Shown: in pieces, positions 1 to 22,163 of the stretch
Layout of the letters: every line of letters begins with the position of its first letter
Numbering within the stretch: the stretch's first letter is position 1
From: a virus
Virus record (IMG/VR): IMGVR_UViG_3300002042_000005
Coordinates: 1-55,494 of that record
Direction: 5' to 3' (one strand)
Length of the DNA stretch: 55,494 nt
Translations under genes and position numbers: made by a program
The notes under the pieces: generated by a model
Databases searched by the model: none
What the model was told of the DNA's origin: nothing
What the model saw: only the letters and a program-made list of their open reading frames with translations

Positions 1-49
1 AGTGATTGATTTGCTGATGTTTGGTTGGCGGAGCGGACGGGACTCGAAC
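1..49. repeat. Left copy of the 49-bp terminal direct repeat (candidate att core)
   Basis: Bases 1-49 are identical to 55446-55494, compared base by base. Confidence 0.9.
26..49 (-). other. tRNA-Asp-like 3' fragment (T-loop, 3' T-stem, 3' acceptor strand, G73, CCA) with no 5' half
   Basis: The minus strand reads GTTCGAGTCCCGTCCGCTCCGCCA. This differs at one base from the E. coli tRNA-Asp 3' end as I recall it. Sequence 50-75 is only degenerately tRNA-like and no GGAGCGG 5' acceptor strand is present. Confidence 0.7.
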
Positions 50-198
50 GCGCTACCCCAGTGTAAGTTATTGTTTCTTGGTGCCAGGCAATCTACGCAC
101 CACCCCGCAAACCCGCATTCTATCGCACCTATCACCATCGGCCTGCACCCGGGTAGCCAATCGGTAGCACATCGCACTGCCGATATGTCTAGTCAGAT

Positions 199-507
199 AT
201 GAGTGGAGTCAACGGCCCCAAACCTTGGGCTGAACAAGACCCTGATGGGTGGGCCTGGGCGCTCCGGGGTCAAGATGACACTTGGTTCACTCCGGTATTC
301 AGCTGCTCGCTATGTAAGCGCTGGTTCACTGCCGGGGGCGTGCGCCACAAGTATTTTGTCACTAGATGGCTTGGAAGGAATCTATTTTTCGCTCGGCTCT
401 GTAAAAACTGCACCTCGATCATGGACCAGATAGAGGCACTAAAGGAACTGAAGCGACTCAAAAACCGTTTGCTAAAGGTGATACGTGAAACTAAAAACAA
501 CAGCTGA
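199..507 (+). CDS. Hypothetical protein with two CxxC pairs (possible zinc ribbon)
   Basis: 102-aa ORF with CSLC and CKNC motifs. It is the first gene inside the left repeat. No family recognised. Confidence 0.45.
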   Translation: MSGVNGPKPWAEQDPDGWAWALRGQDDTWFTPVFSCSLCKRWFTAGGVRHKYFVTRWLGRNLFFARLCKNCTSIMDQIEALKELKRLKNRLLKVIRETKNNS

Positions 508-706
508 TCTGCGCACCGCGCTCCTTGAATCCATCGAGCAAGTGCGCAGCCGGGAAATGGAACCCAAGCAAGCCCAGGCCATTTGCAACCTAACCAAAGA
601 AGTGATCAAAACGGCAGAGATTGAGATAAAGGCAACTTTGATGGCGCATGAGGTTGGCATTAAAGGTGCCCAACCAGAGCCGCTTAGGCTGACCAGTGAT
701 GACTGA
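485..706 (+). CDS. Hypothetical protein
   Basis: 73-aa ORF with a GTG start preceded by AAGGTG. Short overlaps with both neighbours suggest an operon. Confidence 0.4.
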   Translation: MKLKTTADLRTALLESIEQVRSREMEPKQAQAICNLTKEVIKTAEIEIKATLMAHEVGIKGAQPEPLRLTSDD

Positions 707-1037
707 GCACACACCCCTAATCGCCGTGATCACCGGCACGCACAGAGAATGGCTTCGTTTCAAACGGGAATTTATGGACGCTGGCGGGATGGGGACGCGA
801 GTAGACGACCGGGAGTTTACCTTCCAGGGGCGCCGCTATCGATGGATGCCAAGGTGGGAAAAGATCGAAGGGAATTATATGCCGGACCAGGTGTGGCGGT
901 ACGGCAGCTGGCACGACCGGGTTGCCAAGGAACCCCAGGTGTATGGCCAGATGATTTTGTATTGTCGACGGAACCAGGCAAGGATCCGCGACGTTACGCC
1001 AGACTTACTGATTGCTGCGGTGTCAGCTGCTGCCTAA
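696..1037 (+). CDS. Hypothetical protein
   Basis: 113-aa ORF. Its stop (TAA 1035-1037) abuts the stop of the convergent gene at 1038. Confidence 0.45.
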   Translation: MMTEHTPLIAVITGTHREWLRFKREFMDAGGMGTRVDDREFTFQGRRYRWMPRWEKIEGNYMPDQVWRYGSWHDRVAKEPQVYGQMILYCRRNQARIRDVTPDLLIAAVSAAA

Positions 1038-1532
1038 TCAATGCCGCAGCAGCTCATCGGCAATCGACTGCTCGGTTTGCTGAATGGTTAGCGACAACCC
1101 GACAACGTGGCCTCTGCGCCAGTGCCAGTCCGGTACCATCCGCATGGCGTTCTTGCCAGGTATAACAATCGCCGCCTCGGATCCTAACTGAATCACGTCA
1201 TTGCGCTGACTCTCCGGAAAGGCGCGCTCGAGCGCGTAAGACACGGTGGGCAGTTGCTCCAGGCGTTTGCCTTTGGCCGTGTAGGCGTCCAACCCGAAGA
1301 GCTCCGCTGCGTCGGAGTTAATCGCCATAACCCGACTGCTCAGATACGCCTGGTAGAGCGCGCCGTTGGTGGTTTGCCGCCACAACGCGTGCTTAAACTT
1401 GACCTTGAGAAAAGGCGGCGAGTGCCTGTTAAAGATAACCCACAGCACCACCATTGCCACTAACCAAAGGACAACGACTATCGCCTGGCCCACCAAGGAG
1501 GGATCAATGAAATCGAGCACGGCGGGTACCAC
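1038..1532 (-). CDS. Membrane-anchored PAS-like domain protein
   Basis: 164 aa. N-terminal hydrophobic helix (IVVVLWLVAMVVLWVIF), then a PAS-like segment (VMAINSDAAELFGLDAYTAKGKRLEQL...). Last gene of the coupled module 1038-3801. Confidence 0.55.
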   Translation of the reverse strand: MVPAVLDFIDPSLVGQAIVVVLWLVAMVVLWVIFNRHSPPFLKVKFKHALWRQTTNGALYQAYLSSRVMAINSDAAELFGLDAYTAKGKRLEQLPTVSYALERAFPESQRNDVIQLGSEAAIVIPGKNAMRMVPDWHWRRGHVVGLSLTIQQTEQSIADELLRH

Positions 1533-1557
1533 TCATCAACCAAAGCCGCGGGGCGGG

Positions 1558-1800
1558 CTAGCGCGGCCCGCGAAACAACGAACGCAGGCCTGAGAGCCAT
1601 TGCTGGAACCGAGTCTTCGGTCCGGGCAGATCCTCCGGAGGTTCCCAGTCGCCCAGTTCTGGCAACGGGTCAACGGGATCAACATCGATGCGCGCGTGCT
1701 CTTCTCGCACATGCTCAATGGCTAAGGCGGCTCGATGCAACTGCTCTGCTGCCGCCTTCAGCTCATTGTCTAGGCAGGTATCAATCTGCCTGCGCCGCAT
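1558..1800 (-). CDS. Hypothetical small protein
   Basis: 80-aa ORF that overlaps the upstream gene by 20 nt. Helical N-terminus and Pro/Asp-rich centre. Confidence 0.4.
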   Translation of the reverse strand: MRRRQIDTCLDNELKAAAEQLHRAALAIEHVREEHARIDVDPVDPLPELGDWEPPEDLPGPKTRFQQWLSGLRSLFRGPR

Positions 1801-2215
1801 CTGCTATAACTTCAATGATGCCGCCCGCAGGCTGAGGCAGGAACTTGGCGAGCTTGCCGGCAAAGCCAGCCACCCGCGGCCCGTACTTTTCAACAATGCC
1901 CATCACGCCCTGAACAGACAGACTGCTTTCGTCGTCGCCTTCCTCCACCGCATCAACGCTCGCTTTCACTTCGGCGGCCGCTTCGTCTTCTAAGCCCCAT
2001 TGCCTGAGCGCTTCAAGTATCTCAAGCGTATCTTCGCCGGGGTTGATGTTGGTCTGGCTGATTTCCGCACCCGACTCCATATTGTCGACGTTGTTGACCT
2101 GCTTGCCCGTCGACTTGTCCTGGTCAATGGTCTGCGCCAGGTTCTCGATGTTACCGCCGCCGGTATCGATCGTTGGGTTAAACCCGCCACCACTGTTGTT
2201 GTCTTCGCCTGTCAT
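1781..2215 (-). CDS. Hypothetical acidic protein
   Basis: 144 aa, Asp/Glu/Gly/Asn-rich. ATGA start/stop overlap with the upstream gene. Confidence 0.5.
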   Translation of the reverse strand: MTGEDNNSGGGFNPTIDTGGGNIENLAQTIDQDKSTGKQVNNVDNMESGAEISQTNINPGEDTLEILEALRQWGLEDEAAAEVKASVDAVEEGDDESSLSVQGVMGIVEKYGPRVAGFAGKLAKFLPQPAGGIIEVIADAAQAD

Positions 2216-2694
2216 TCAGATTTCTCCTGGTTGATTGTATTGCCGACGTTTTCAACCGCGCCGCCATCGGTATGCACTGACATGTTTGTTTCACTTCGGC
2301 CAAGGTGCGCCTTCTGGGTATCCCAAATCATTTCCATTTTCGCTCGCGCGTTTGACACCATTGCTAAGGCTTCATTCAAGGCCGTTGTTAGCGACTCCTG
2401 CTTAGCCACAATCTTGTCCTGCATTTCTTTGCGATCGCCATCACGCGATAACAGCTCTTGCATAGACCGCTCAAAGTCGCCCTTCATATCTTTGAGATAC
2501 ACCGCGAGATCCCGAAGGTGGCCGGTGTTCGTCTCTTCCAACCGCTTTAGATCTTCCTGCAGCGTTTCGTTTAACCGCCGCAGTTGGTCTAGCTCACGTT
2601 TTAAGGAGGCAAGTTGTTGATCGTCTTGCTCGGTGAGCCTGGACAGAATGTCGTCATCCTGCTCGTCGTCATTGCCAAATATACTGCCAGCCAT
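2212..2694 (-). CDS. Hypothetical coiled-coil protein
   Basis: 160 aa with an acidic N-terminus and heptad-like LKRELDQLRRLNETLQEDLKRLEE. Its ATG lies immediately after the stop of the 368-aa gene. Confidence 0.55.
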   Translation of the reverse strand: MAGSIFGNDDEQDDDILSRLTEQDDQQLASLKRELDQLRRLNETLQEDLKRLEETNTGHLRDLAVYLKDMKGDFERSMQELLSRDGDRKEMQDKIVAKQESLTTALNEALAMVSNARAKMEMIWDTQKAHLGRSETNMSVHTDGGAVENVGNTINQEKSE

Positions 2695-3801
2695 TTATCG
2701 CGACCTTATAACAACGGCGGCGCCGTAGTGCTTTTCTTCACCGCCCTCATACTTGACAACGGGATAGCGCACTAACTCCCATAGCGTTAAATGCCCATCT
2801 TTGTGTTTGGCAGTCACCCACCCTACCTTTAACGGCTGGGTGACATCCGGCATTGAAGCCACAAACTTAGAAACAACGGCCGCGTGCGACGGACGCTCGC
2901 TATCGCCATCCTGGTACGCCTCTTCATCGATCAACAGATCAATGTGTTCGCCTTCCATTTCACTTTCGGAGTAACCGGACGCTTTTTCCATGCGCGGATT
3001 CGCTTCCGTGATAAGACCGTCACAGTCAATAAGCAGAGCTGGTGGCCCGTAGCGAAAGTACTGACCGTGCAAAGCATCGCTTGAACTGCCCGCACTGGAC
3101 AATAAATCACTGAGCGATGACGTTGACGCCGACGAGCTCTCTAATCGTTTCCGGGAAACCTCAAGCTCATATTGCAGCCCCGCAACGACGCTTTCCTGCT
3201 CATGCTTCGCGCGCTCAAGCCCGCTTATATGGCGCTGCCTTTCAACTTCCCTGCGCGCCACCTTGCCCTTACTCAGAAAGGCGTTGATAAGCGCAAAGAG
3301 CGCGATCAGCCCGGTGCCTATCTCGTCTAACCAATGCGTCCAATCTTGGGTAACACCAACCGCCTCCGAACGGTCCATGTGAATTTTTAGCGCCACCGTT
3401 TTGCCGTCTATCTCCATTGCCCGGCCAGCCAGAATGGTGTCCTTACCGGTGTAGCTTTTCGCCTCTGTAATCAAATCGCCTTTGGCCGCAAGCACGGCGT
3501 TGAGGTGATCACCACAACGAGCCACCTCCCAACGACCTTTTGGCAAGAACCTGGGCTTTGTCAGGAAACGGCCGCTCTCAGAGCAGAAATAAACATCGAG
3601 TGTTTCCCACATCCCACTCGTCGTTACCGCGTCGATACCAAGCTGCTGCGCAATGATGGTTTTGTCGTGCAGCATTTCTTCAAGGTCGCGCTTGTTCTCT
3701 TTGATCTGAGATTCCGCGCGATCGTTGCCGGCGTACATGTCAACGCCCACCACCCAGAGGAAGGCAAGTAATAGCAGTAGAAAGTTTCGGAAGGGGCTCA
3801 T
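2695..3801 (-). CDS. Sensor-like protein with no output domain: TM, extracytoplasmic Cache-like domain, TM, coiled coil, C-terminal PAS
   Basis: 368 aa. TM1 is FLLLLLAFLWVVGV and TM2 is GLIALFALINAFL. The C-terminal PAS signature is PALLIDCDGLITEANPRMEKASGYSESEMEGEHIDLL...KHKDGHL. No HisKA, HATPase, GGDEF or HTH follows. ATGA overlap with the 3798-4226 gene. Confidence 0.65.
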   Translation of the reverse strand: MSPFRNFLLLLLAFLWVVGVDMYAGNDRAESQIKENKRDLEEMLHDKTIIAQQLGIDAVTTSGMWETLDVYFCSESGRFLTKPRFLPKGRWEVARCGDHLNAVLAAKGDLITEAKSYTGKDTILAGRAMEIDGKTVALKIHMDRSEAVGVTQDWTHWLDEIGTGLIALFALINAFLSKGKVARREVERQRHISGLERAKHEQESVVAGLQYELEVSRKRLESSSASTSSLSDLLSSAGSSSDALHGQYFRYGPPALLIDCDGLITEANPRMEKASGYSESEMEGEHIDLLIDEEAYQDGDSERPSHAAVVSKFVASMPDVTQPLKVGWVTAKHKDGHLTLWELVRYPVVKYEGGEEKHYGAAVVIRSR

Positions 3802-4226
3802 GGATTTTCCTCAAACCATTTATCTATAGGTTGTCGTGGTGGGATAGGCTGGCCTGCCGTGGCGGTCGTGTAGTCGTGCCAGATATCCAACTGATCAAGA
3901 ATTACGTGCGGGGGCGCGTTGTCGTCAATCAAATCGCCAAACTCAGACCAGAAATCACGCGCAGACACTGCGAAATACCCAAGCGTTCCTAACGTGTCTC
4001 CGTTGCCGGGATCATCTAACTGAATCGCTTGCCAATACAAAATGCTTTCATCAACGTAAGCAAAGGTCGGCGCGAAGTTTCCGGTTGCTAGAAGGTCGTT
4101 TGTGAGCGTTGTTGTCTCTGCTGGCCCTTGCTCCGCGCGGATTAACGCATCCTGCGTAGCCTGAACGTAAGGCGTTGGTGGAACGACAAGAGACGGCGCT
4201 ACAGCGATGGCGTTGCGGACTAGCAT
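3798..4226 (-). CDS. Hypothetical protein in the tail-fibre-chaperone position
   Basis: 142-aa ORF directly downstream of the tail fibre gene. Assignment is by position only. Confidence 0.45.
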   Translation of the reverse strand: MLVRNAIAVAPSLVVPPTPYVQATQDALIRAEQGPAETTTLTNDLLATGNFAPTFAYVDESILYWQAIQLDDPGNGDTLGTLGYFAVSARDFWSEFGDLIDDNAPPHVILDQLDIWHDYTTATAGQPIPPRQPIDKWFEENP

Positions 4227-4230
4227 AAGA

Positions 4231-7200
4231 TTAGAGAACCCATGATTCCAGCTCTAGAAGGTTAATTGCCCACGAGTCATCCACCGACATTTTTAGGTGC
4301 CAGCTTCTACCGTTGAATTCAAAGTAGGCTTCTTCGACTGCGCCGCCTACTGAAAAGTCAATGTTTTGCCCTGCAAAGTTAGTAAACGCAGCGTTGGTGA
4401 ACGTCCGGCTTGGCGTGTCGCGCATATCCGTTACGTTTTGATCCCAATGGGAATAGCAGTTGGTTAGCGTCACGTTAGCGCCAGTAGCTGCCGCAATGAT
4501 CTGCCTGCCGGTAGCTCCAGCTCGAAATACCAGCTCTGGCAGGGCCGCAAATACCGCGTTGGCATTATTGCTCGGGCGTAATAGCTGGCGCGTGTAGTCC
4601 GGCAGAACGGCGGGAAACTCTACGAAAGTAACGGCGGGGTTTGGCCCTGTGCTCAGAATGTTGTAATAGCCCTCAGTCTCCGACACGATAAACACTATCG
4701 CGTCAGTTACGGTATCAAGTGATATGCGCGAGTTTGGCGCAACCTCTACCTTGTGCGCTGTAAAGAACTCATCGTAAATCGTGGGCGCTTGCTGCGCGGC
4801 GGTCGCGGAGGGGCTGGTGACTGCTGCCGTTTTTGGGGCTGCTACCACTGTGCCAGTTGGAACCACCGCCGCCGCATCGCCATCAACACGAAGCTCTGAC
4901 CAGTGATAATTGACAGCACGGTTAGGGTCATTGAATCGAAGAGCGCCGGTTGTGTAATCCACCACCGTGCAGAGAACATACCCATCAGCGTGACTGTCTA
5001 TATAAAACTGGTCAGCATCGCCCGCACTCTGGCTACGAATAACCGCTAGCGATATATCAGCTATTGGCCAAGGTCTGCGGGCTGTGCCGGTAGAATCAGC
5101 AATCTGTATGCGAATGTATGCCTCGTCGGGCGCACTAGCCAAATCGTGTCCGGTAACAATGGGCGTGTTATCTATGTCGGCCAGGTCTGAATGCCTGTTA
5201 CCAATCCGCATATCCGCTTGAAACGCTTCGATTGCATTATCCAGCCGACCATCCCACCAAACCTTCACAAAGTTAGGCCCGGTCTGTCGCCATCGGTAAA
5301 TGTAGCGGTTTCGCAGTGCGCGAATACTGTCTACCACATAGTTAAGCTGCCCGCCTTGATCATCGAGCATCACCTCAAAGCCAGAAGTATTGACAATGAT
5401 GCCTTCAAACTCGTTGTTGACGTCATGCGCAGACAGGTCGGGCAGCGTGCCTGTGGCCCCCGCTGAAACCCCTGCTGAGACCAGCCATGAGTGCTCGTCA
5501 GCACCCAACGTGTAGTTATTGTCAGTAGCGACCAGAGTTTCGCGTTGCAGCTTGCCCGGCGTCGCTTCGGGTACAGATTTGGTTTTTAGCCAATAAGGGT
5601 CGTCGAGAACACCAGGGACCCCGCGCCAGTGAGTAGTTATTACCTCCAGTAACTCAAAATCCGCAGCATCTAGCGCCAGTGCGTCTGCGCGGTTCGCTTG
5701 GATGATCGATAACGCAATCTCTTGCCCAAGCACCGCAACCGGCCTAACGCCTTCCGCATCATCCAGAAAGCGAACGTTGTCCTTGTTAATCTTCCATTCT
5801 TCGCCGCCAGCATCTAGGTAATAGATTGGGTTGCCTACCGCCGCGCGGGTAACGCTCCACTTGCCATCGACACCCCCAAACCCATCATAAAGCGGAGAGC
5901 CTTTAGCTCGAAACACCGTCGCACGCTGGTCTGGGGTAACCGTGTGAACATTATTGACTCTCGACACCCCATCATCGCCAACGTGCACAATTCTATGCTC
6001 GGGTCCGCCGCCCACTTGATTTACCCGTAGGTCGCCTTGCGCGTCCGTGTCCAAGCAGTAAGTAATCAACCCCGCGAATGTATCGGGTAAATTAACGTCT
6101 AATCCCGCCGCTGGCGTTACTATCACGTAGTTAACACCGGGGCGTAAGTCGTGACCGTCATCTGCCGATGTCAGGTCAATATTTACCGGTGGCATGGTGA
6201 CGGATACTGTCCACTCGACACCATCCGAGGCATACAGCACGGTCATGCCGGGGAAGATCGGCAAGGGGGGAAGTGGGACGCCATTCACAATGCGCCGCGT
6301 GTTCGCGCCGCTCACTATGGCTGGGGTGCCATCCTTAACCCCAGCACCGTGCACAACCTCAATGTCTTTGCCAGCAAAACCAGTAGCAGGCGGCAATTCA
6401 AACCCATTGCCAGTTGTAAGGTAACGTTTGCCCGGCACAAGAATCGGATTGCCTGCTGCAACTGCTATTCGGTCCGGCAACGTTTTATTATTAAGGTGGT
6501 ACTTAGAACTAGCGCCCCAAGTGGTTTGAGCGTCGATAACTATCCACAACTCAAACGAACCTTCCCCGTCATCTAGAACCAGAACCAAGCGACCAGCCGC
6601 CAGTGCGTCGTCACCGCTATTGGTTAACGCATCGCGCTCTGCAACATCAGCAACAACAATGGTTTCGGTAACCGTGGCAGTTGCTTGCGCGACTTTCGCT
6701 GATTCCAACAACTTGGAAGAAGACGCAACGCCACCATTCGCGCCATTGAGCGCTTGATCACCGCCAACCGTGACCGTGCCCAGAAACGAATGTCCCGTTG
6801 CGAACAATGGTGGAACGACCATGTTAGCCAAAGCGCGATCCACTCGAGTGGCTGCGCTGGCGTAGCTGCCGTACTTGATCTGGCCTAGAAGCACTTTAAG
6901 TTCGCCAGTGGCGTCTTCGATATAGACCAGGCTGGTAACTGCATCGTTGCCAGGGATGGGTGACAGAACACCGTTCAAATCGTAGCTTGGCTTCAGGACG
7001 CCATAATTGACCGGACCGTTGAGTACTTCGGTGCCGTCACTAAGGAAAACTTTATAAGTGTCGCCACCTGCGAAATCTAGAGCTTCATTCCAAACCTGCT
7101 CGGCTTCGTTAAAGGTGTAGATTTTACCGGGCGCTACCGTCAGCGTGTTGGTACCAGTGGCTCTCAGGTCAAGACCAACCTTGACTTTCTTTATGGCTTG

Positions 7201-7980
7201 GCTGAGCAGCTTTGCAAGTTCGGGGCGAGCCTCCAGCCCGGTGCCGTCACTTTTCTCGCGCAGAATATCGAACGGCGATCGCGCCGGTAGTTTTTGCTCG
7301 AACCGATCGTTGACCGCTCTTGTGGTGGGATAGGTGGTGTCGTTGATCGTGGCGAAGTCGTTGACTTTGTTGGCCAGCTTCTCGTCAAGCGCGTCCGCGT
7401 TCGCTCGGTCGGTCGCTTCTTGAGCGATCGCTGCAGCGTTTGCCTGCTCTGCGGCCGTCGCGCGCGCCGTTTCCGCCGCCACCTTGGCGTCACTGTCTGT
7501 GATGGTCTCAAGCGCCGATAGATCCGGCGCGGCCGGCTTGTTCTCCAGATCTGCGTAATCGCCTGACCGGGCAACTTCATGCAGGTTGGTTATGCGCTCG
7601 CGCTCCGTAGCGACTTCCGACTTGTCGGCTTTGTTGGCAAGGCTCGCTGTGTTGGCGCCGGTTGCCGCGTCTTGAGCATCCTGCTCTGCCTGCAGCGCTG
7701 CTTCCAACGCCGCCAGCTCGGCATCGGTTGCGTTGCCGGCGTTTAACGCATCAAGCGCGGCCTGCAGATCAGCATCGGTGGACGCTTGCGCGGAAAGCGC
7801 TGCGTTGGTCGCTGCGATCGCTGCATCAAGCTCGCCCTGGTCGGCGTTGGTCGTGCCCGCGATAATGCCGGCAACGTCTGTCAGGCTTACGCCACCACCG
7901 CCGCCACCACCGCCTAAACTGGGGCTAGTGAGAATGCGGCCGTTGGGGTAAACGGACACTTTGGGGTAGTAGTCAACCAT
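4231..7980 (-). CDS. Tail fibre protein
   Basis: 1249 aa, following the J-like gene. N-terminus has a Gly8 run and then Ala/Glu-rich coiled-coil repeats (AELAALEAALQAEQDAQDAA). The long C-terminal part looks beta-rich. Confidence 0.75.
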   Translation of the reverse strand: MVDYYPKVSVYPNGRILTSPSLGGGGGGGGVSLTDVAGIIAGTTNADQGELDAAIAATNAALSAQASTDADLQAALDALNAGNATDAELAALEAALQAEQDAQDAATGANTASLANKADKSEVATERERITNLHEVARSGDYADLENKPAAPDLSALETITDSDAKVAAETARATAAEQANAAAIAQEATDRANADALDEKLANKVNDFATINDTTYPTTRAVNDRFEQKLPARSPFDILREKSDGTGLEARPELAKLLSQAIKKVKVGLDLRATGTNTLTVAPGKIYTFNEAEQVWNEALDFAGGDTYKVFLSDGTEVLNGPVNYGVLKPSYDLNGVLSPIPGNDAVTSLVYIEDATGELKVLLGQIKYGSYASAATRVDRALANMVVPPLFATGHSFLGTVTVGGDQALNGANGGVASSSKLLESAKVAQATATVTETIVVADVAERDALTNSGDDALAAGRLVLVLDDGEGSFELWIVIDAQTTWGASSKYHLNNKTLPDRIAVAAGNPILVPGKRYLTTGNGFELPPATGFAGKDIEVVHGAGVKDGTPAIVSGANTRRIVNGVPLPPLPIFPGMTVLYASDGVEWTVSVTMPPVNIDLTSADDGHDLRPGVNYVIVTPAAGLDVNLPDTFAGLITYCLDTDAQGDLRVNQVGGGPEHRIVHVGDDGVSRVNNVHTVTPDQRATVFRAKGSPLYDGFGGVDGKWSVTRAAVGNPIYYLDAGGEEWKINKDNVRFLDDAEGVRPVAVLGQEIALSIIQANRADALALDAADFELLEVITTHWRGVPGVLDDPYWLKTKSVPEATPGKLQRETLVATDNNYTLGADEHSWLVSAGVSAGATGTLPDLSAHDVNNEFEGIIVNTSGFEVMLDDQGGQLNYVVDSIRALRNRYIYRWRQTGPNFVKVWWDGRLDNAIEAFQADMRIGNRHSDLADIDNTPIVTGHDLASAPDEAYIRIQIADSTGTARRPWPIADISLAVIRSQSAGDADQFYIDSHADGYVLCTVVDYTTGALRFNDPNRAVNYHWSELRVDGDAAAVVPTGTVVAAPKTAAVTSPSATAAQQAPTIYDEFFTAHKVEVAPNSRISLDTVTDAIVFIVSETEGYYNILSTGPNPAVTFVEFPAVLPDYTRQLLRPSNNANAVFAALPELVFRAGATGRQIIAAATGANVTLTNCYSHWDQNVTDMRDTPSRTFTNAAFTNFAGQNIDFSVGGAVEEAYFEFNGRSWHLKMSVDDSWAINLLELESWVL

Positions 7981-8038
7981 TTCTAACTCCTATAGATAAT
8001 GGGCAGCAAACGTTGGACGCCATCACGGCCGATCACTG

Positions 8039-11000
8039 CTATGCGATTTGTTCTGCGGTAAGCACAGGCTTGGCAAAATTGAACAGATAATTTCCGGCTT
8101 GTGACCAAACCACGCTGTAAACGTGGTTGCCGGCAGCCGGAGAATCAATAATTTCTATGTCGATCGGAGCGGACGCTGACCATTGCCCAACGTTTAGTTC
8201 GGGATCCACAACGCGCTGAATGTTTGAAACCAGCCCGGTGCCAATGTCGATCCCATCACGGCGCACAGTGAACGTGGCGGAGCTAGCTGAGCTCGCCTGC
8301 GTCCAGCCGCCCGTCGCGCCACCTTTCAAGGTAATCAGCACATCTTGGCCGGCGGCTGCAAAGTTGAGCGAGGCGCCACCATTGTTATTGAGATTCGCGG
8401 CCACGCGATCGATTTGAGAACCTGCTACCCCATCAGCGCCTGGCCGGCCTTGCAAAAGCACCGGTGCACTCCAAGCGGCAATGATGTTGTCGTTTTCATC
8501 GCGTCGCACTCTGCTCATGTAGAGCAGGTTGAATTTATCGGCGGTCGCTGCCGGCGGCGCATCACTCCAGCCGGCCGGATCATTGCCCGTTGGCGTGTCA
8601 GGGAATGACGTGGTGCGTCTGAAGCGCACGTCAAAGTAGTCGCCGTTGGATCCGTTCTCACCAACAATCCGATAGGGCGCTGAGTACGGGGCGGTGCCGC
8701 GGCGCTGGCGTTGGTAAACGTGCGTGGTGCCGTTGAAGGTATCCGACCAGGGCCCAGTCAAGTTCGCGCTAAATTGCACCTCAACCCCGACACCATCAGC
8801 CACGTTCGGAACGTGAACGCTTAGCGCATCGATTCGCAGACTGTCCGCCGCTTTGAACACGGTTGAGTAGATCTGGTGATCTTCCGTAAACATGAACGCG
8901 ATACGCTGCCCGTTGTTGTTAACGGCATACCACTGCCCATTCTCATGCTCAGCAGGATGGAAGCCGCTCACCCATGGGAACTGGTTGGGGTAGCTCATGG
9001 TCGGATGCGCCGTGAGTGAATTCACTGGCGACCAAACAATAAACCCGCGCTCATCCGGTGGCGTATACGCGCCTTCCCACGGTGTGTGTAACGCCGCATC
9101 CGCTGGGATATCGCGCGTGACCTCGGATCCGTCACCAAGCACTGCGGTGAAGCGCCCGGAAGAAAACATGATCTCGCCATCGTTGGCGGCACCAGAGGCC
9201 TGGCGGTTAGCCACCAGGTGGATTGTCGATCGACCCTGACCCCAACGTGAGTTTCTAGGCAGCGCGTCCAGCCCGTCTCTGCCCTCGCGCGAGCTGGTGA
9301 ATACGGCCGTGACCGTCACACCCTCGGAGACGTGCAACATATCCACCTCAACCGTGATGGATCCTTGCCCCCGGACGGCCGCTATATTGGTGTTCTCGCC
9401 CTGCTCAGAAGCTGGCAGGTCGGTTACGTTGATGGTGCCGTTGGTGGCGTTCAGGGTCGCGCGTATGGCGTGCTCTGCGATCGCAGCCGCCACACCGCCG
9501 CGGCGCGCCTTCAGCAGCAGATCCTTGACCAGCTGGTTATCGCCGTCTGGCGATTTCCAGGTGCCGTCCTGCTGCAGCATCCAAACATGCGGCCCGGGGG
9601 TATCCCAGGACACCGGCGAAGCCCCCGGGTCGCCCTTGGGCCCAGCACCAGGCGCTGGCGGCGTCACCGGCACGCCAGACGTTGGAAACAAAGCGCTTAA
9701 GTTGCCGCCGGCGCGGGATCTAGCGAAGTAGTAATAGGTCTGCTCACCCACCACGTTGCCGTCGACCTTCAGCGCAACGTATTCATCCGTTGCAGGGTTG
9801 TAAACGGCCGGAAGCGACGCGATCACGGCCGCAGATCCTGAGCTGTTCGTGACCCCGCGCCAGATCTCAATGGAATCCGGAATAGCTCCGGTACCAGGCA
9901 CACAGACCGTCAGTTCCACCCCTTCTCCCAGAGCGTTTACGTTCAGCTTGTTGGGCGCGGCCGGCGTGGTAGGCCCGCCCACAAGCCCGCTGGTGTCGAT
10001 TTCTACCTCAGTGAATGGACCAGGGAATACCGAGACGCCACCCACACGGTATTTGATGGGCCCAGGCGGATGGCTCGGATGGTCGACAAGAAACTCTTGT
10101 GGCCGATCGGCGCCCATGTCAATCCAGGTGGCGCCACCGTCTAGCGAGTACTCCACGTCGTATCGATCGGAGAATTCACCGCGCCAGGACAACAGCACCT
10201 GCAGCTGACCGTCGACGCGATCAAGTTCTGCCCGGAGGTTAAAGACTCTCGGTACCAGCTTCAGCGCATCCGCAAGCGTTGGCGGCGGCGGCGCTGTCAG
10301 TGGCGTGTAGACCTCTGGCGCGTCAATGAATCCGGACAGTTCAATCGTTTCGCCTTCCCGCGGCTCGAGGGCCAGCACGCGCACATTCTCATCAAAATCA
10401 GTACCTTGGCCAATCTGAAAGCGCGGGTTGTCATGGTCCGGATCAAAGACTAATCCAGAGGCATCAAAGGCGCCCTGGATCTGCACCTGGTCCGCGGCCG
10501 TGATCAGCACCGGGTAGGGCCCCAGGGGCTCGTTTCGGATATTGGGAATCACAATGTGTGGGTTGGTGAAGGCGCCAAGTAGATCTGACTCCGACAACGT
10601 AAGCACTGAGCCCGTGCGCGATAATATATCGCCGGATTTCTGAGGCGCACCGGCCTGATCAAACACCACATGAGAGACGCGAATCAATTCCCCCCAGCGC
10701 GGTATCTGCCCCTCGAGCGGAGCAATCAACGTCACCGGCTCGCGTCGATATCGATCCACGGCCGCAATTCGTAACCCCAGGGCGGTGGCTTGCGCTCGGT
10801 TGTCGACGCCCCAGAGTTTTACTTCCTGCGGGTCATCGCTCGTGCCGTCTGGCAGCGTGCAAGGAATGGTTACCGGGCGATAGTCCTGGTCCCGATCGAA
10901 GTACTCCACCAGCACATGGTCTTTGCTCTCACTGAGCGGCGCGATATGTTCAATGCTGAACGAAGCGTCGACAATGTTGCGCATGTTGAACATCTGGACC

Positions 11001-12484
11001 GCGACCGACTTTGGCTCGTCGCGCAGCATGGTATACACGCCACCTTCATCCACCGGCACACAGTGCGCGGCGTTGCCCATCCGCGTCACCATATCCCAGA
11101 GCGTTATGGTGGTGTCCTGGATCCCGTTGACTTCAAACCCGTCTGCGTCCAGCTGCTCGCCAAGCGTTACCAGTTCCGCCAGGTTAATGTGCAGGTCATC
11201 CCGGTTGCCGCCGTACTCTTCGTTATGAAGGGCATCCATCACCGCGTGTGAAAAACGCCGGGTAACGATTGGTGCGCCCCAGGTGTTGGTATCCGGATCG
11301 TACGTGCTCAAGCGGCGCTGGCCGACCAGGTTAAAGCGCGTCAGTGCACGCGTGCCGAGCTCTTCGGAGGCGCGGATCCGCACCGCTACCCGCGTGGTCG
11401 TGGTAACCGGTAGATTGTCGACAAAGAAACCGCGCAGCTGTGACCAGTTCATGAAGTTCACCAGCATTGACTCTTCGTCAAAGGGTGAGGTGCGGTTAAG
11501 TCGGACGCGGTAGCGACCAGGAGGCACGGTGACTTCGTGGCTATGCCGAATGGTGGCCACCCCATCACCGCTGACCGTCAACGGCAGAACGACAAACGCG
11601 CCCACGGCGTTATCCAGGTCATCAATCTCCTGGTATTCAATGGCGTAGTCGACGGTTAAGCGATCGCGCGCGCCACTCGATCGCTGGCGATACAGCCCGC
11701 GCGGAAACGCAACGTCGACGGCAAACCGGCTAATTCGAGTGGCTGGGGGGTTGGTGACATAAGCGGTGGTGGTTCCCTGCTCAATCTGCAGGTCGCTCAC
11801 TTCAGAACTTGTCGCTACGTCTTCCGGGTAAAGGCGACTGGTCGCACCCGGCGGAATGATTTCATACTCAACCGTCCGGAAACTGGAAAGCGGCGTATCT
11901 TCAAACGCCATCGTGGCAACATCGATGTCGACTTCGCCTTGCGAGACGGAGTACAACATCGTAACCATCTGATCATCTGGGAAGATGTAGGCAATGTGAG
12001 GCTGTGCCGCGAGATCTGGGAAAACTCGCATGCGGCCGTAAAGAACAGGAATCGCCTCACCCAATCGGGCGCGGTTAGATCTGACCTGCAGGTTTTGGTT
12101 AGGCGATTGGTTGGTAAGGGCTTCGGGCGTGCTGGGCAGCGTTGCCAGGCCGTAGATGGCCACCGCCACCGCCGCCACCTGAATAACGGTGTAGACCGCT
12201 TTCCAGAAGGCAGGGTTGAATACAAAGGCTTCCGGCAGCACCTGGAGGTGCAATAGATCGCCGCGGTTGATGGGTACGTCCCAGTCGGCCTCATACAACG
12301 GCCGGCCATTGAGAATCGTCATGGTGGGCTGTACAAGCAGCTCCGCCATTAGCCCGGAGCGCTCCAGGAACTCGCGCGGCGTTTCGCCAGGCTCCATCAC
12401 AAACGGCACCAGGCCTTCCGTGTTAAACGGATTAGGGAGGTAAGCCGCCAGGGTTTGTGACGGACGGTAAGCCGGTAGATTCAT
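8039..12484 (-). CDS. Central tail fibre / host specificity protein (lambda J-like) with a gpI-like N-terminal region
   Basis: 1481 aa in the position after the K-like gene. The N-terminus has a hydrophobic segment and a PVLYGRMRV motif resembling the lambda gpI C-terminus (PVLYGEMRV). The J-like body includes FN3-like segments. Confidence 0.85.
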   Translation of the reverse strand: MNLPAYRPSQTLAAYLPNPFNTEGLVPFVMEPGETPREFLERSGLMAELLVQPTMTILNGRPLYEADWDVPINRGDLLHLQVLPEAFVFNPAFWKAVYTVIQVAAVAVAIYGLATLPSTPEALTNQSPNQNLQVRSNRARLGEAIPVLYGRMRVFPDLAAQPHIAYIFPDDQMVTMLYSVSQGEVDIDVATMAFEDTPLSSFRTVEYEIIPPGATSRLYPEDVATSSEVSDLQIEQGTTTAYVTNPPATRISRFAVDVAFPRGLYRQRSSGARDRLTVDYAIEYQEIDDLDNAVGAFVVLPLTVSGDGVATIRHSHEVTVPPGRYRVRLNRTSPFDEESMLVNFMNWSQLRGFFVDNLPVTTTTRVAVRIRASEELGTRALTRFNLVGQRRLSTYDPDTNTWGAPIVTRRFSHAVMDALHNEEYGGNRDDLHINLAELVTLGEQLDADGFEVNGIQDTTITLWDMVTRMGNAAHCVPVDEGGVYTMLRDEPKSVAVQMFNMRNIVDASFSIEHIAPLSESKDHVLVEYFDRDQDYRPVTIPCTLPDGTSDDPQEVKLWGVDNRAQATALGLRIAAVDRYRREPVTLIAPLEGQIPRWGELIRVSHVVFDQAGAPQKSGDILSRTGSVLTLSESDLLGAFTNPHIVIPNIRNEPLGPYPVLITAADQVQIQGAFDASGLVFDPDHDNPRFQIGQGTDFDENVRVLALEPREGETIELSGFIDAPEVYTPLTAPPPPTLADALKLVPRVFNLRAELDRVDGQLQVLLSWRGEFSDRYDVEYSLDGGATWIDMGADRPQEFLVDHPSHPPGPIKYRVGGVSVFPGPFTEVEIDTSGLVGGPTTPAAPNKLNVNALGEGVELTVCVPGTGAIPDSIEIWRGVTNSSGSAAVIASLPAVYNPATDEYVALKVDGNVVGEQTYYYFARSRAGGNLSALFPTSGVPVTPPAPGAGPKGDPGASPVSWDTPGPHVWMLQQDGTWKSPDGDNQLVKDLLLKARRGGVAAAIAEHAIRATLNATNGTINVTDLPASEQGENTNIAAVRGQGSITVEVDMLHVSEGVTVTAVFTSSREGRDGLDALPRNSRWGQGRSTIHLVANRQASGAANDGEIMFSSGRFTAVLGDGSEVTRDIPADAALHTPWEGAYTPPDERGFIVWSPVNSLTAHPTMSYPNQFPWVSGFHPAEHENGQWYAVNNNGQRIAFMFTEDHQIYSTVFKAADSLRIDALSVHVPNVADGVGVEVQFSANLTGPWSDTFNGTTHVYQRQRRGTAPYSAPYRIVGENGSNGDYFDVRFRRTTSFPDTPTGNDPAGWSDAPPAATADKFNLLYMSRVRRDENDNIIAAWSAPVLLQGRPGADGVAGSQIDRVAANLNNNGGASLNFAAAGQDVLITLKGGATGGWTQASSASSATFTVRRDGIDIGTGLVSNIQRVVDPELNVGQWSASAPIDIEIIDSPAAGNHVYSVVWSQAGNYLFNFAKPVLTAEQIA

Positions 12485-12866
12485 TCAGGTAACGCCAGTA
12501 TTTCAATGGTGGGCAAACGTGAGGGCGAGTAAGCACCACACCTGAGCCTTGCTGGTTATGCATCACATAGAGGCCGTCCGGTGTGTCCAGAACAACTCCG
12601 ACATGAAAGACACGCCCCGCCCGCTCGAGCATAAATTCAGCTAAGGCCAGGTGCGCCGGTTCAAAAATTTGATGGAAAAGTGAATGCTCCGGTGCATCAC
12701 GAAAAGCGCGCAACACCGCAAGCGTGTTCTCTGGATCAACCCCGTACGCCGGCAACTCAACCGCTAGCTCATCCCGGTACACGTCGCGCACGAGATCCCA
12801 GCAATCGTAACTGCCTCTAACCCAGGGTTTCCCCAGGTACCTATGCCAAACCGGGGTAGGTTTCAA
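12432..12866 (-). CDS. NlpC/P60-type tail tip assembly protein (lambda K-like)
   Basis: 144 aa. Catalytic-Cys context is GSYDCWDLVRDVY, with downstream His residues (FHVGVV, MHNQ). Lies between the L-like and J-like genes. Confidence 0.8.
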   Translation of the reverse strand: MKPTPVWHRYLGKPWVRGSYDCWDLVRDVYRDELAVELPAYGVDPENTLAVLRAFRDAPEHSLFHQIFEPAHLALAEFMLERAGRVFHVGVVLDTPDGLYVMHNQQGSGVVLTRPHVCPPLKYWRYLNESTGLPSVTNPGGLPP

Positions 12867-13389
12867 TCGAGTACTTCTTACTTGGGAAAGGCTGGTTGGC
12901 AGGGTTAGTGAAACCCATGGTGCCGGTAATACTCGTCTTGTCGACTTTGGCCCGTCTCAGCTCGAGGTGAATCACGCGCAGCACACTAACGACAGTCTCA
13001 GTCTTTGACGAAAACAAGAGCGATCGAAGCGTGACCGCGATCGGCGCCCTGGTCCTAATCGCCAACCGCACAAACGGCTGCAATACACCTGGCACGCCAT
13101 CAATGGTGATCCGGGCGGTTGGGTCTGGCTGGGTCGCCTCGCCTGGTTCGTTAAACTCAAACGCCGTGCCCTGAAAACTAACGGTCTCACCAGGGTTCAC
13201 CGGTGCGCTCGCCTCGAGCGTCAAGTCTAGATCCTCGCGGTACTGCACCATCCGGAACGGCGCCGGGAATACAGGGTGCCGCATTTCGATTGACCACTTG
13301 CGGGTTGTGCTGTTGTCAGCCCGCGCGATCGCTTCTTTACGCGCGTCATCAAAACTCACGCCACCCGACTCCGGGTAGACACGCCACAC
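12841..13389 (-). CDS. Minor tail protein (L position, DUF1833-like)
   Basis: 182 aa. The C-terminal NQPFPSKKYSIETYPGLA and the overall pattern resemble the DUF1833 minor tail family as I recall it. Synteny supports the call. Confidence 0.65.
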   Translation of the reverse strand: MWRVYPESGGVSFDDARKEAIARADNSTTRKWSIEMRHPVFPAPFRMVQYREDLDLTLEASAPVNPGETVSFQGTAFEFNEPGEATQPDPTARITIDGVPGVLQPFVRLAIRTRAPIAVTLRSLLFSSKTETVVSVLRVIHLELRRAKVDKTSITGTMGFTNPANQPFPSKKYSIETYPGLA

Positions 13390-13715
13390 GACAAGCGAAA
13401 GTCACGGCCGAACTCTTCCAGCCGGACACTGCCTTCAAAGCGTGCTGAGTGAGTCGCGAGAGCCCCGCGGCTAAGCAACGGCATATCAAAATAGTTCGTG
13501 GTCGCGTTCGCAAACCCATCCCAGATTTCAAGCCAAAACTGATCAACCTGAGCAGCCGTCAGATACAGGCTGATCGTAAACCGGTTGTCATCCGCGCGCG
13601 TGATACGCCGGCGACGCTCCGGGCCTTGCTCCATTTGCGTTGCAAGCACTTCTGCCGTGGTCGACATCGAATAGCCTTCTCGCATAGGAATTGGAAAACC
13701 TGCAGGCCAACTCAT
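13356..13715 (-). CDS. Minor tail protein (M position)
   Basis: 119-aa ORF immediately after the tape measure gene, with a 4-nt overlap. Assignment is by position. Confidence 0.55.
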   Translation of the reverse strand: MSWPAGFPIPMREGYSMSTTAEVLATQMEQGPERRRRITRADDNRFTISLYLTAAQVDQFWLEIWDGFANATTNYFDMPLLSRGALATHSARFEGSVRLEEFGRDFRLSCGVSTRSRVA

Positions 13716-16510: not shown

Positions 16511-17269
16511 AAGCGTTTAGTTCCTGCTCGCGCTTTCGTTTGTCTTCTTGCGCTTTGCGGTAGGTGGGGTCTAAGCGCATGCGTTCCCGATGGGTGAGCG
16601 CTTCTTCTAACTGTTCGTCGCTTAGCCAGTCGTCATCCGACATTGCCGCCATGCGGTAATGCAATTCGTACTCGGTCGGTGTGATCTGGCGCGCGAGCTG
16701 CTGGAGTGAGCCCCCAGCGCATTCTTTAGCGAGCTTTAGGCGAAAGCCTAGCTCTCCGCCGTTGCGCCGGAGGCGTTCGGCAAAGGGTCTTTGTCCGCCC
16801 TGGGGGCGTCATCGTCGGGAAGCGCAACACGTCCCGACAACCGCATGATGATTGGCTTCATGTTCGCAAGCGAGCCAGAGCCAAACTTCTTGGCCACCAT
16901 GACTCGTTGCTCTTCGGTCGGCTCGCCGCGAAGCAGACTGGCAGCCACCAGCAAACTGTCGTGCGCGAGCAACCCAGATTCAAAGGAATCCGCCAGGTCT
17001 TCTATGTCACCGTCAGAAAGGGTTTCATTTGCATCCTGGTTAGGGTTTTCTTTCGCCGCGTTGCGCGCTTTTTCTTTTTCAAGTAACTCATTCATCATGT
17101 CGCGCGCCTTCCACCAGATGGCAGTCGGCACTTCATGCAGCGTTACTCGGTGGCCACCAACGGTAACCTTTTCACAATCCAAAACCATGACACCACCCGC
17201 CCAAAAGGCGTCAAGGTCAAGGTCTTGGGGCTCATCTGCGGCAGGCGCCGCGTGCGGATCATCGGACAT
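16488..17269 (-). CDS. Predicted GT-like fusion chaperone produced by a -1 frameshift
   Basis: The -1 frame is open from the slippery heptamer (16781-16787, in-frame C CCT TTG) through the whole apparent gap to a TGA at 16488-16490, just inside the tape measure gene. Confidence 0.55.
16748..17269 (-). CDS. Tail assembly chaperone (lambda G-like)
   Basis: 173-aa acidic ORF between the tail tube and tape measure genes. A slippery CCCTTTG lies 11 codons before its stop. Confidence 0.7.
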   Translation of the reverse strand: MSDDPHAAPAADEPQDLDLDAFWAGGVMVLDCEKVTVGGHRVTLHEVPTAIWWKARDMMNELLEKEKARNAAKENPNQDANETLSDGDIEDLADSFESGLLAHDSLLVAASLLRGEPTEEQRVMVAKKFGSGSLANMKPIIMRLSGRVALPDDDAPRADKDPLPNASGATAES

Positions 17270-17295
17270 CGGTTTTTACTCGCTTATGGGCTACG

Positions 17296-17727
17296 TTATG
17301 CAGCCTCAGTGAACACAGGATCTGACGACTGGGTGAAGTCGACTTCCATCTGGCCTTGGGTCTGGGCTTCCGGGTTCGGCACGCGCAAACCACCCAAACC
17401 GCGCTCAGCCGTTGCAATACGGCCCCAACGGTAAGTAATTCGCATGTTGACCACCGCCTTAGCCACCGCTAACGCAAAAAACTGCGATTGTGCGGCGTCG
17501 GCCACGTCGTTAAAGATCAACGTGCCGTCTACCGCGTCCGATCGACCAGGTACGGTGATCTGAGTCAGGGACGCGATCGGAGAAACGTCGATCGAATTGA
17601 CACCGGTACCGCCCACTGGACCAATCTCAAGCGTGTTGAGTAGGTCTATGAAGACACCGGCGTTGTTGGGATCCTCAAACGCCATGACTGTGCCGGCGCC
17701 GAGGGTGGGGGTATCTGATAGTGGCAT
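17296..17727 (-). CDS. Major tail tube protein (V position)
   Basis: 143-aa ORF directly upstream of the chaperone pair. Assigned by lambda synteny. Confidence 0.65.
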   Translation of the reverse strand: MPLSDTPTLGAGTVMAFEDPNNAGVFIDLLNTLEIGPVGGTGVNSIDVSPIASLTQITVPGRSDAVDGTLIFNDVADAAQSQFFALAVAKAVVNMRITYRWGRIATAERGLGGLRVPNPEAQTQGQMEVDFTQSSDPVFTEAA

Positions 17728-17765
17728 GGTGCCTCCTTTGGTTTAATTCAGCGTTCTAATGAAAC

Positions 17766-18017
17766 TTATTGGCCGTCTGACTCGCCGGCAGGTTCGCCCG
17801 CATCGCCATTGCCAACAATTTGGCTATCGCGAACGGCCACCTTGGTGCCGTCCTCGAGCTCAACTTGCGTTAAAGACTCGCCGGCGCTGTTGTTGCTCTT
17901 CTTGGCCGCGGGCATGTGCCCGACCACCGTTGCGGATACAGGATCCTGGGCAACAATCTCGCCATCAATGCGCTTATTCAGTTTTACCTGGACCTGCGCG
18001 CCTACTTCTAAAGCCAT
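17766..18017 (-). CDS. Hypothetical small protein
   Basis: 83-aa ORF between the U-position and V-position genes. Confidence 0.45.
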   Translation of the reverse strand: MALEVGAQVQVKLNKRIDGEIVAQDPVSATVVGHMPAAKKSNNSAGESLTQVELEDGTKVAVRDSQIVGNGDAGEPAGESDGQ

Positions 18018-18022
18018 GGGAA

Positions 18023-19392: not shown

Positions 19393-19394
19393 GC

Positions 19395-22161: not shown

Positions 22162-22163
22162 CG

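Follow-up and report, generated by a model that had tools for sequence, protein, structure and literature searches.

What does a temperate phage do with a membrane receptor that stops short of any output domain, and through which partners could such a protein act? The question is raised by five minus-strand genes at positions 1038–3801 of IMG/VR virus record IMGVR_UViG_3300002042_000005, a viral DNA of 55,494 nucleotides (nt) that was analysed over its whole length (hereafter, the window). An earlier note made from the sequence of the window had described these genes as a chained module following the tail fibre genes and had proposed it as an undescribed system; the five open reading frames (ORFs), their coordinates and all of their junctions proved to be as described. 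The products are g368, a membrane sensor of 368 amino acids (aa) encoded at 2695–3801; g160, an acidic coiled-coil protein (2212–2694); g144, an acidic protein (1781–2215); g80, a small helical/acidic protein (1558–1800); and g164, a single-pass membrane protein (1038–1532). The most informative feature of the module is a short peptide shared by g160 (type A) and g144 (type B), which co-varies between the two proteins from one genome to another. Our tentative preference, at somewhat less than even confidence, is for an accessory signalling module that is specific to phages and transcribed together with the late tail genes, in which a sensor, an adaptor (A) and a membrane effector (B) are coupled through these paired peptides.

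Conserved core of the module

All five module proteins are singleton clusters among approximately 15 billion sequences. A word-indexed search of 5.8 billion proteins matched g368 only to itself, and repeating it with the family alignment or a g164 alignment added nothing useful. An exhaustive HMMER search of 1.84 billion representative proteins retrieved only seven relatives of the N-terminal 170 residues of g368 (the N-domain), including P0002 at 6.8e-34. No match was found in 50,697 cultured phage records, either to the DNA of positions 1–8000 or, using tblastn, to g368, P0027 and P0002, and a pattern search of IMG/VR with the family alignments gave no confirmed match. The view that the system is undescribed agrees with these searches, with the lack of matches in PHROGs, PADLOC and (the PAS domain aside) NCBIfam, and with the literature searched, in which no counterpart was found. 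The profile searches also placed none of the proteins in a tail fibre accessory or assembly family (PHROGs, none at E < 0.01).

Six of the seven relatives have readable neighbourhoods, and in each of these the sensor gene comes immediately after a large gene upstream; the contig of the seventh is too short. Of the six readable contigs, four carry phage or fibre-type Pfam markers (Gp53-like_C with Sipho_Gp157; Gp80; a Pel9A-like beta-helix with NUMOD4/HNH; and a DUF4055 portal). The cytoplasmic part of the sensor is a PAS domain in the window and in loci L003, L004 and L005, a coiled coil in L006 and L007, and a short Gly/Asn-rich tail in L009. The gene order sensor, coiled-coil A and B is shared by the window, L003, L004, L005 and L007. 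Protein A is a short coiled-coil protein without a transmembrane (TM) segment, encoded next after the sensor except in L009, while B has an acidic middle part and a hydrophobic or amphipathic C-terminus, with a clear TM segment in L004 and L005. The A and B genes overlap by 4–14 nt in four loci, are 31 nt apart in L009 and have one ORF between them in L007.

Shuffle-calibrated alignment of g144 with the B protein of L003 gave z = 6.9, with none of 300 shuffles scoring as well. By the same approach, g164 and the 152-aa product of the last gene of the L003 block share 26% sequence identity (z = 2.9) and the same TM-plus-domain layout, and the two are probably related. No similarity to the positional counterparts was detected in such alignments for g160, g80 and g142, the product of the gene preceding g368. 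BLAST, phmmer and jackhmmer comparisons of the small window proteins with the ORFs of the other loci returned nothing significant, and Pfam searches with the A and B proteins of these loci gave coiled-coil noise only. Besides the sensor, a single downstream protein (common to L006, L007 and L008) was detectable across loci by BLAST.

As judged from gene order and architecture, the conserved unit consists of the sensor, A and B, with g164 and g80 as lineage-specific additions. Sensor, A and B occur together in other loci, which bears out the expectation that the module co-occurs outside this element, but of the five genes originally grouped only these three form the conserved core: g164 has a relative in just one other locus (L003, the closest relative), and no relative of g80 was detected, which makes its membership of the module uncertain.

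The acidic or coiled-coil character attributed to the three small proteins between g368 and g164 was confirmed, with isoelectric points of 4.7 (g160), 4.1 (g144) and 5.5 (g80), as was their lack of a known family, none of them having a match in Pfam, PHROGs, NCBIfam or PADLOC. The g160 protein, which has no TM segment or signal peptide, produced only sub-threshold coiled-coil matches (PADLOC coiled-coil noise at E of at least 0.002). In g144, an N-terminal motif is followed by an acidic middle part and a Gly/Ala-rich amphipathic C-terminus (aa ~110–140, positions 1796–1888) carrying the conserved pattern G..VA......LP..GG.I. A profile search of the PDB with the B family found nothing.

Paired terminal peptide

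A peptide of 17–23 residues rich in Gly, Asn, Gln, Val and Ile lies near the C-terminus of A and recurs in B, where it starts at residue 9–14. The two copies in the window are NMSVHTDGGAVENVGNTINQEKS in g160 (aa 137–159, positions 2218–2286, minus strand) and NPTIDTGGGNIENLAQTIDQDKS in g144 (aa 13–35, positions 2111–2179, minus strand). Their counterparts are VGSIEGGNQSIGGDQNV in A and IGEIQGGNQAIGAEQHV in B of L003, and QVNKDGGTGIQGKVDEID in A and QTNESGATGIQGKVDKIE in B of L007. In L009 the first copy, GTAAGAVTNNGGNNTLTGDV, is located on the sensor's own cytoplasmic tail and the B gene, encoding the copy GLSIGSITNNGGNNTLTGDI, follows directly, a fusion that links the sensor with the A/B pair. 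All copies of the peptide are predicted to lie in the cytoplasm.

The within-locus peptide scores are 62, 61, 26, 42, 66 and 85, as compared to a cross-locus mean of 26.5 and a maximum of 43, and the true pairing of A with B is the unique best of 720 permutations. The null set of 1420 random ORF pairs, taken from 80 metagenomic loci encoding Cache-type proteins, reached a maximum of 37, and the peptide match lies above this null in five of the six loci. A six-frame scan found the peptide exactly twice per locus, and the next-best score in the whole 55-kb genome was 25.5 versus ~90. Identical residues of the two copies are mostly encoded by different codons (the same codon was used for 4 of 14 residues in L009 and 1 of 10 in L003), indicating that the match is held by selection at the protein level; on this ground, a DNA repeat or recent gene conversion was ruled out.

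Two further explanations of the pair were tried and rejected. The paired motif is not a general feature of the surroundings of Cache genes, since it is absent from the 80 metagenomic loci (mostly of the chemoreceptor type, as judged from a sample of 28 proteins). A role of the peptide as a mere ligand of PAS, or of PAS as its obligatory partner, fails because the pair is kept in L007 and L009, where the PAS domain is absent.

The residues Gln, Asn, Gly, Val and Ile make up 57% of the motif versus 30% elsewhere in these proteins (p = 3e-14), whereas Lys, Pro and Leu account for 9% versus 18% (p = 5e-4), and the peptides contain no Arg or aromatic residues. By inspection, short hydrophobic-containing stretches seem to be parted by Gly-containing turns. 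Bacterial amyloid signalling motifs show Q/N/G/V/I enrichment and K/P/L depletion, and their pairs have been searched for as adjacent collinear genes, often overlapping, whose products have a terminal motif of 15 or more residues in common (Dyrka et al., bioRxiv 10.1101/2020.01.06.895854). Matching end peptides in such an arrangement are so far known only from amyloid-type pairs that signal cell death.

Alternatively, the shared peptide could be a plain docking element that holds A, B and the sensor in a stable membrane-associated complex, by beta-strand augmentation or at a common site on a third protein, and serves a late positioning or timing function with no templating or switch. Co-variation within a genome is equally expected for peptides that bind each other or a common pocket, and both the single motif copy in B and a polarity opposite to that of the known amyloid pairs fit this explanation. 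It is nevertheless unlikely in our view: a G/N/Q/V/I-rich, K/P/L-poor composition with Gly turns is unusual for simple docking peptides, and complementary docking partners normally differ in sequence. A common pocket would furthermore have to lie in the N-domain or TM region of the sensor, the PAS domain being absent in L007 and L009.

Domain structure of the sensor

The g368 protein had been read as a TM segment, a Cache-like domain, a second TM segment, a coiled-coil linker and a PAS domain with no output domain, and this layout is supported by hydropathy, by the NCBIfam model TIGR00229 and by an AlphaFold2 (AF2) model. The predicted parts are TM1 (aa ~5–24, positions 3730–3789; hydrophobic over aa ~1–26), an extracytoplasmic Cache-related PAS-like domain (aa ~25–150, 3352–3729), TM2 (aa ~155–177, 3271–3339; hydrophobic over aa ~158–176), a helical/coiled-coil linker (aa ~178–240, 3082–3270) and a cytoplasmic PAS domain (aa ~245–365, 2707–3069), all on the minus strand. 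Basic residues follow TM2, and hydropathy together with the positive-inside rule supports an extracytoplasmic location of the N-domain. TIGR00229 matches g368 with 29.0 bits, above its curated cut-off of 22.9, and the Pfam PAS model with 21.2 bits, just below its cut-off of 22.6. Relatives of g368, including P0002, match PAS with E-values as low as 1.6e-8, and more than 150 multi-PAS proteins among the 1.84 billion representatives match g368 residues ~250–340.

A single-sequence AF2 model of g368 was unusable (predicted local distance difference test, pLDDT, 46.8), and the model described here was built on eight family sequences (pLDDT 73.7). Its N-domain shows a helix over residues 3–54, where TM1 runs into a long periplasmic helix, and a sheet of four to five strands over residues 68–143, with pLDDT mostly 85–93 and several 10-residue blocks at 66–79. 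TM2 and approximately 50 residues of linker form one helix (156–223). The PAS region is modelled with strands 255–258, 263–267, 324–332, 338–348 and 358–365 and four helices between them (2-beta/4-alpha/3-beta), at a local pLDDT of only ~50–85. Foldseek gave TM-scores of 0.67–0.72 against the PAS structures 3lyx and 2gj3. For the whole model, the best PDB match was the front half of the sensor kinase WalK, with double-PAS proteins next, which suggests that both globular parts of g368 are PAS-like folds. Structure prediction thus upholds both the PAS and the Cache-like assignment. The protein ends three residues past the PAS domain, and no kinase, cyclase, methyl-accepting chemotaxis protein (MCP) or helix-turn-helix output domain was found in it with Pfam or NCBIfam. 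No kinase or response-regulator domain was detected in the window proteins scanned, that is, those encoded outside the head-to-tail structural genes at 12432–26107.

The assignment of the N-domain to Cache holds through family-profile homology but not through Pfam, whose Cache models matched neither g368 nor its seven relatives at E <= 1. In metagenomic proteins, the hidden Markov model (HMM) of the family N-domain matches ~80 residues just before TM2, and of 28 such proteins sampled 17 contain a Pfam dCache_1 domain and 19 MCPsignal. A reverse HMM built from Cache proteins recovered seven of the eight family members and none of 2000 decoys, missing g368 itself; its candidates had been pre-selected by a motif, which introduces some circularity. 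The Cache-like pattern quoted earlier falls within the part of the N-domain that matches dCache_1 chemoreceptors (profile positions ~100–183). Since the N-domain profile finds dCache_1 receptors and the reverse profile returns most of the family, the Cache-like reading appears to be right at the family level, with g368 as the most diverged member.

The N-domain profile also matched a group of ~345-aa metagenomic proteins (L020–L022, L043, L045, L048, L055, L061, L062, L070, L073, L077 and L082), over a longer stretch than it matches in chemoreceptors. These proteins have a Cache-like region at ~212–323, after which only a short tail and no signalling domain follows, and may be another output-less Cache family.

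The best match to the front half of WalK and the relationship of the N-domain to dCache_1 chemoreceptors would also suit a decoy receptor, in which g368 copies the front end of a host sensor kinase or chemoreceptor without its output and heterodimerises with a host receptor to silence or hijack it during infection or lysogeny. A precedent is offered by phage peptides directed against a membrane diguanylate cyclase (PMC8085984). However, the closest relatives of the N-domain are phage-encoded and only ~25–37% identical to one another, and no near-identical host receptor was found, contrary to what recent capture predicts. A decoy, which we regard as very unlikely, would also leave the conserved A/B pair and the L009 fusion unexplained.

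Gene junctions and expression

The module is closely chained to the end of the tail operon. The gene of the acidic protein g142 (3798–4226, minus strand), located between the gene of a 1249-aa fibre protein and g368, overlaps the g368 gene in an ATGA (3801/3798), and a second ATGA joins g160 and g144 (2215/2212). The g160 start codon directly follows the g368 stop codon in a TAAATG junction (2695/2694), the g144 and g80 genes overlap by 20 nt (1800/1781), and a 25-nt gap precedes g164. GC contents at third (GC3, 0.58–0.73) and second (GC2, 0.33–0.44) codon positions are typical coding values. All five proteins also appear in the public JGI annotation, where g164 is called at 160 aa.

A scan of the minus strand of positions 1–8200 revealed no sigma-70-like or other promoter-like site, and terminator-like sites in this region occur at no higher rate than in shuffled sequence. 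In the window, L003, L005, L007 and L009, the sensor gene either overlaps the gene upstream or starts 0–3 nt after it; in L004 the two are 54 nt apart. The simplest reading of this arrangement is that the module is co-transcribed with the tail genes. The close spacing and the lack of promoter-like sites favour late lytic expression over expression as a cargo gene of the lysogen. We therefore favour a late lytic role in lysis timing or in the sensing or blocking of superinfection. The superinfection or lysis-timing sensor and exclusion roles proposed previously are compatible with this; least favoured among the earlier proposals is interference with host two-component signalling.

A function in the lysogen is the main rival to this late lytic role. 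In that case the prophage would express a defence or superinfection-exclusion system of the abortive infection (Abi) type, built on the same chain of sensor, adaptor and effector, whose periplasmic domain would detect the attack of an incoming phage on the envelope and whose effector would kill or depolarise the lysogen. The module lies ~1 kb from the probable attP core, at the end of the prophage that often harbours accessory genes, and its position between the tail fibre genes on one side and the attachment site (the tRNA-Asp-like segment at 20–59) on the other is as previously described. It is missing in L001, a phage whose central fibre protein is 42% identical, and so behaves as variable cargo. 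Bab/Agp, the only bacterial amyloid-motif pair characterised experimentally, is itself an Abi system of E. coli with a ~20-residue motif, found in prophage hotspots (10.1101/2024.11.07.622273). On the other hand, lysogen expression fits poorly with the junction to the upstream gene in most loci (a late fibre-region gene in the window) and with the lack of promoter-like sites on the module strand. No component matches PADLOC-DB 2.0, and in L007 the module is part of a long same-strand block that reaches a portal-like gene and does not adjoin an attachment site. Overall, we consider a lysogen-expressed defence system improbable.

Tight chaining directly downstream of fibre-like genes, seen wherever the upstream genes are identifiable, could point to a third possibility, namely that these are tail fibre accessory or virion-assembly proteins acting as chaperones or membrane-anchored assembly factors of the structural operon. 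Against this stand the absence of the module from L001, the lack of any PHROG or Pfam structural or chaperone match, and a two-TM receptor topology with a cytoplasmic PAS domain, which is unfit for a virion or chaperone role. Neither the neighbouring fibre nor g142-type proteins are conserved with the module. We rate a structural role as most improbable, and together with the decoy receptor it explains the least of the observations.

Proposed mechanism

In the preferred reading of the module as a late signalling device, the sensor would be an inner-membrane protein with a periplasmic Cache-related domain and, in the window, a cytoplasmic PAS domain. A (g160) would act as a cytoplasmic coiled-coil adaptor ending in the ~20-residue G/N/Q/V/I-rich peptide, and B (g144) as a small effector with this peptide at its start and a membrane-seeking hydrophobic or amphipathic segment at its end. 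A cue received at the Cache-like domain or at the PAS domain may alter the assembly state of the sensor and A, and the clustered A peptides could then pair homotypically with those of B through beta-strand or amyloid-type cross-beta templating. B would thereby be concentrated at the membrane and perturb it, with control of lysis timing or a block of superinfecting phage late in infection as the possible outcome. Both g80 and the g164 protein, in which a TM segment is joined to a domain that may be PAS-like, would be additions of particular lineages.

A more specific version, a prion-like cascade owned by the phage in which the Cache/PAS receptor nucleates the adaptor motif and this in turn converts the motif of the membrane effector, is doubtful but would have the larger consequences. 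If true, it would give the phage a switch-like, signal-dependent means to breach or seal the host membrane, and would be the first amyloid-signalling pathway with a transmembrane receptor, the first with reversed polarity and the first owned by a virus.

Several observations weigh against the proposed mechanism. The peptide pair is informative in only six loci, and the score of the L004 pair (26) is not above background. Beyond motif and architecture, the A and B proteins of most loci have no detectable homology, and no second, pseudo-repeat copy of the motif was detected in B. No segment of g144 exceeds the TM hydropathy threshold, so that it is called a membrane effector on the strength of its amphipathicity and of the B proteins in L004 and L005. 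The phage has its lysis cassette elsewhere, with the endolysin gene (36724–37230) beside a Q-like gene. The module also lacks the domains of known amyloid-signalling pairs (Bell/HeLo/Babybell, NLR, NACHT/NB-ARC and TPR-GreAB-PIN (TGP); Pfam, PADLOC), and its polarity is reversed. In known Bell/NLR-type pairs the effector motif is C-terminal and that of the NLR, STAND or TGP sensor N-terminal, whereas here the motif is C-terminal on the presumed sensor side and N-terminal in the effector.

The idea that the module is the main lysis cassette was rejected in view of the endolysin, lipoprotein and candidate holin genes at 35.6–37.2 kb. Nor does g144 have the properties of a holin or antiholin, with the endolysin-like gene ~33 kb away and no window above the TM threshold.

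Accessory genes

The g164 protein had been described as one TM segment plus a PAS-like fold. The TM segment was confirmed (aa ~14–34, positions 1431–1493; strong, with an N-out/C-in orientation by the positive-inside rule), but for the cytoplasmic domain (~110 aa, positions ~1083–1370) a PAS-like fold is only a possibility. There was no Pfam or NCBIfam match; hhalign against the PAS domains of the g368 family gave weak signals over 30 columns in the register of the S1 box (P = 0.002–0.008, probability 5–13%), and the top three matches in a PDB profile search were to the PAS domain of ThkA, at weak E-values of 0.15–0.77. A PAS-like nature of this domain is plausible from these profile comparisons.

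Additional genes were noted near two of the sensor homologues. A few genes downstream of that in L004, positions 2499–3241 encode paralogous secreted proteins of 123 and 119 aa with the motif F..P.D....G[YF]KFYCGPT. Upstream of the sensor homologue in L005, positions 6098–8014 encode DUF1559/SBP_bac_10 pseudopilin-like, TM coiled-coil and two-TM helical proteins, which suggests a larger membrane-protein cargo block. DUF1559/SBP_bac_10 pseudopilin-like proteins are common in Planctomycetes, and the host of the L005 phage is possibly a planctomycete.

Phage genome

The source element is a lambda-like temperate tailed phage. A 49-nt exact direct repeat at the window termini (1–49 and 55446–55494) shows that the assembly closes into a circle, which makes the window a complete element of ~55,445 bp. 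It encodes an integrase (53031–53912), a Q-like protein (37569–38126) and a large terminase (24017–26107) with ~37% identity to the terminases of Pseudomonas siphoviruses. The long late operon on the minus strand ends with the genes for a 1481-aa central fibre protein, the 1249-aa fibre and the 142-aa acidic protein g142. At its N-terminus (7890–7925) the 1249-aa fibre has a run of eight glycines followed by an Ala/Asp/Glu-rich probable coiled coil, where a weak EAD10 match is spurious.

In a blastn comparison with E. coli genomes, the minus strand of positions 20–59 matched the 3' part of tRNA-Asp (87.5% identity over 40 nt) in all 5426 genomes. ARAGORN found no complete tRNA at this site, nor did an Rfam scan of positions 1–200. 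The segment, located 1.5 kb downstream of the integrase gene across the circular junction, is probably the attP core. Three small plus-strand ORFs (199–1037) lie between it and the module and converge on the latter. The stop codons of orf113 (plus strand, ending at 1037) and g164 (minus strand, ending at 1038) abut with no intergenic base, which leaves no space for a terminator shared by the two transcription units.

The lysis region (35661–37230, minus strand) encodes a 168-aa endolysin-like peptidase (36724–37230; PHROG 894), a 227-aa protein with a lipobox-like LTSSC signal and a 142-aa Gly/Ala-rich hydrophobic protein, possibly a holin; none of the three matched a spanin or holin family. 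A phage-encoded tRNA-Met (CAT; 37343–37418, minus strand) is located between the Q-like antiterminator and endolysin genes. Three consecutive large ORFs of 817, 556 and 1088 aa occupy positions 28275–35654 on the minus strand, between the lysis and packaging genes. They have no PHROG match, and their sole Pfam match is an Ig-like He_PIG domain in the 1088-aa protein; a 7.4-kb block with no assigned function is unusual for a lambda-like layout. Upstream of the terminase genes, an intergenic 19-nt unit (TTTGACCATGAATGGCGAA-like) is repeated four times in tandem (26695–26786) and may serve for terminase recognition (as a cos/pac site) or as an array of binding sites for a regulator. The early region encodes on the plus strand a 559-aa protein similar to terminase-large/FtsK-like ATPases (49983–51662), additional to the true terminase, and a 583-aa ParB-like protein (46984–48735).

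Comparison with known systems

The front half of the sensor has familiar relatives. Like WalK and dCache_1 MCPs, g368 is composed of a TM segment, a periplasmic Cache/PAS-like domain, a second TM segment, a helical linker and a cytoplasmic PAS domain. Unlike these proteins, it stops after the PAS domain, with no HAMP, DHp, HATPase, MCP, GGDEF or cyclase domain, and its family occurs only on contigs with phage markers or on contigs too short to classify. PAS proteins and sensor kinases, some of them output-less, are also encoded by uncultured Caudovirales and by Agrobacterium phage Atu_ph07 (BFVD entries A0A6J5NY05, A0A6J5KZZ3, A0A6J5L941 and A0A2L0UZB1). Their similarity to g368 is at the fold level only (9–13% identity), and none is known to have a Cache-like N-domain or A and B partners.

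For the proposed late function, the lysis-inhibition proteins RI and RIII of phage T4, which act with the holin T, provide a conceptual parallel. In both cases a periplasm-sensing phage membrane protein and cytoplasmic partners would modulate a membrane-lesion protein late in infection, and both are encoded away from the endolysin. The two systems have no sequence or fold relationship, and g144 is not a demonstrable holin.

The closest analogy to the A/B pair is found in the Bell/NLR pairs of bacterial amyloid signalling sequences (BASS) and in Bab/Agp. As in those systems, the genes are adjacent, collinear and often overlapping, and a motif of 17–23 residues joins the end of one product to the start of the next. 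The motif is likewise G/N/Q/V/I-rich and K/P/L-poor, it is more similar within pairs than between them, and one of the partners is small and membrane-directed. The module differs in having a transmembrane Cache/PAS receptor as its sensor and in being located in a phage late operon, not in a host defence island. By analogy, it may resemble the amyloid-signalling class, of which it is not a member. No link of amyloid-type motif pairs to Cache/PAS receptors or to phage late operons was found in the literature searched. As far as can be judged from sequence, the module represents new protein families in a new setting, with the signature of amyloid-signalling-like gene pairs.

Known prokaryotic amyloid-type signalling comprises NLR/Bell pairs and one experimentally studied defence pair, which have cytoplasmic sensors and serve the host. 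If the proposed mechanism is true, a phage-owned version with a periplasm-facing receptor would mean that viruses use such switches too. It would also add new ~20-residue tags that couple sensor to effector and co-evolve pairwise, and open a way to study how certain phages sense the condition of the cell envelope late in infection, for lysis timing or superinfection. Even if the peptides served plain docking, the module would comprise a phage-specific, output-less Cache/PAS receptor with fixed partners, and no such receptor has been described. Its signature, in which the C-terminus of one product matches the N-terminus of the next and co-varies with it within each genome, can be mined across viral metagenomes.

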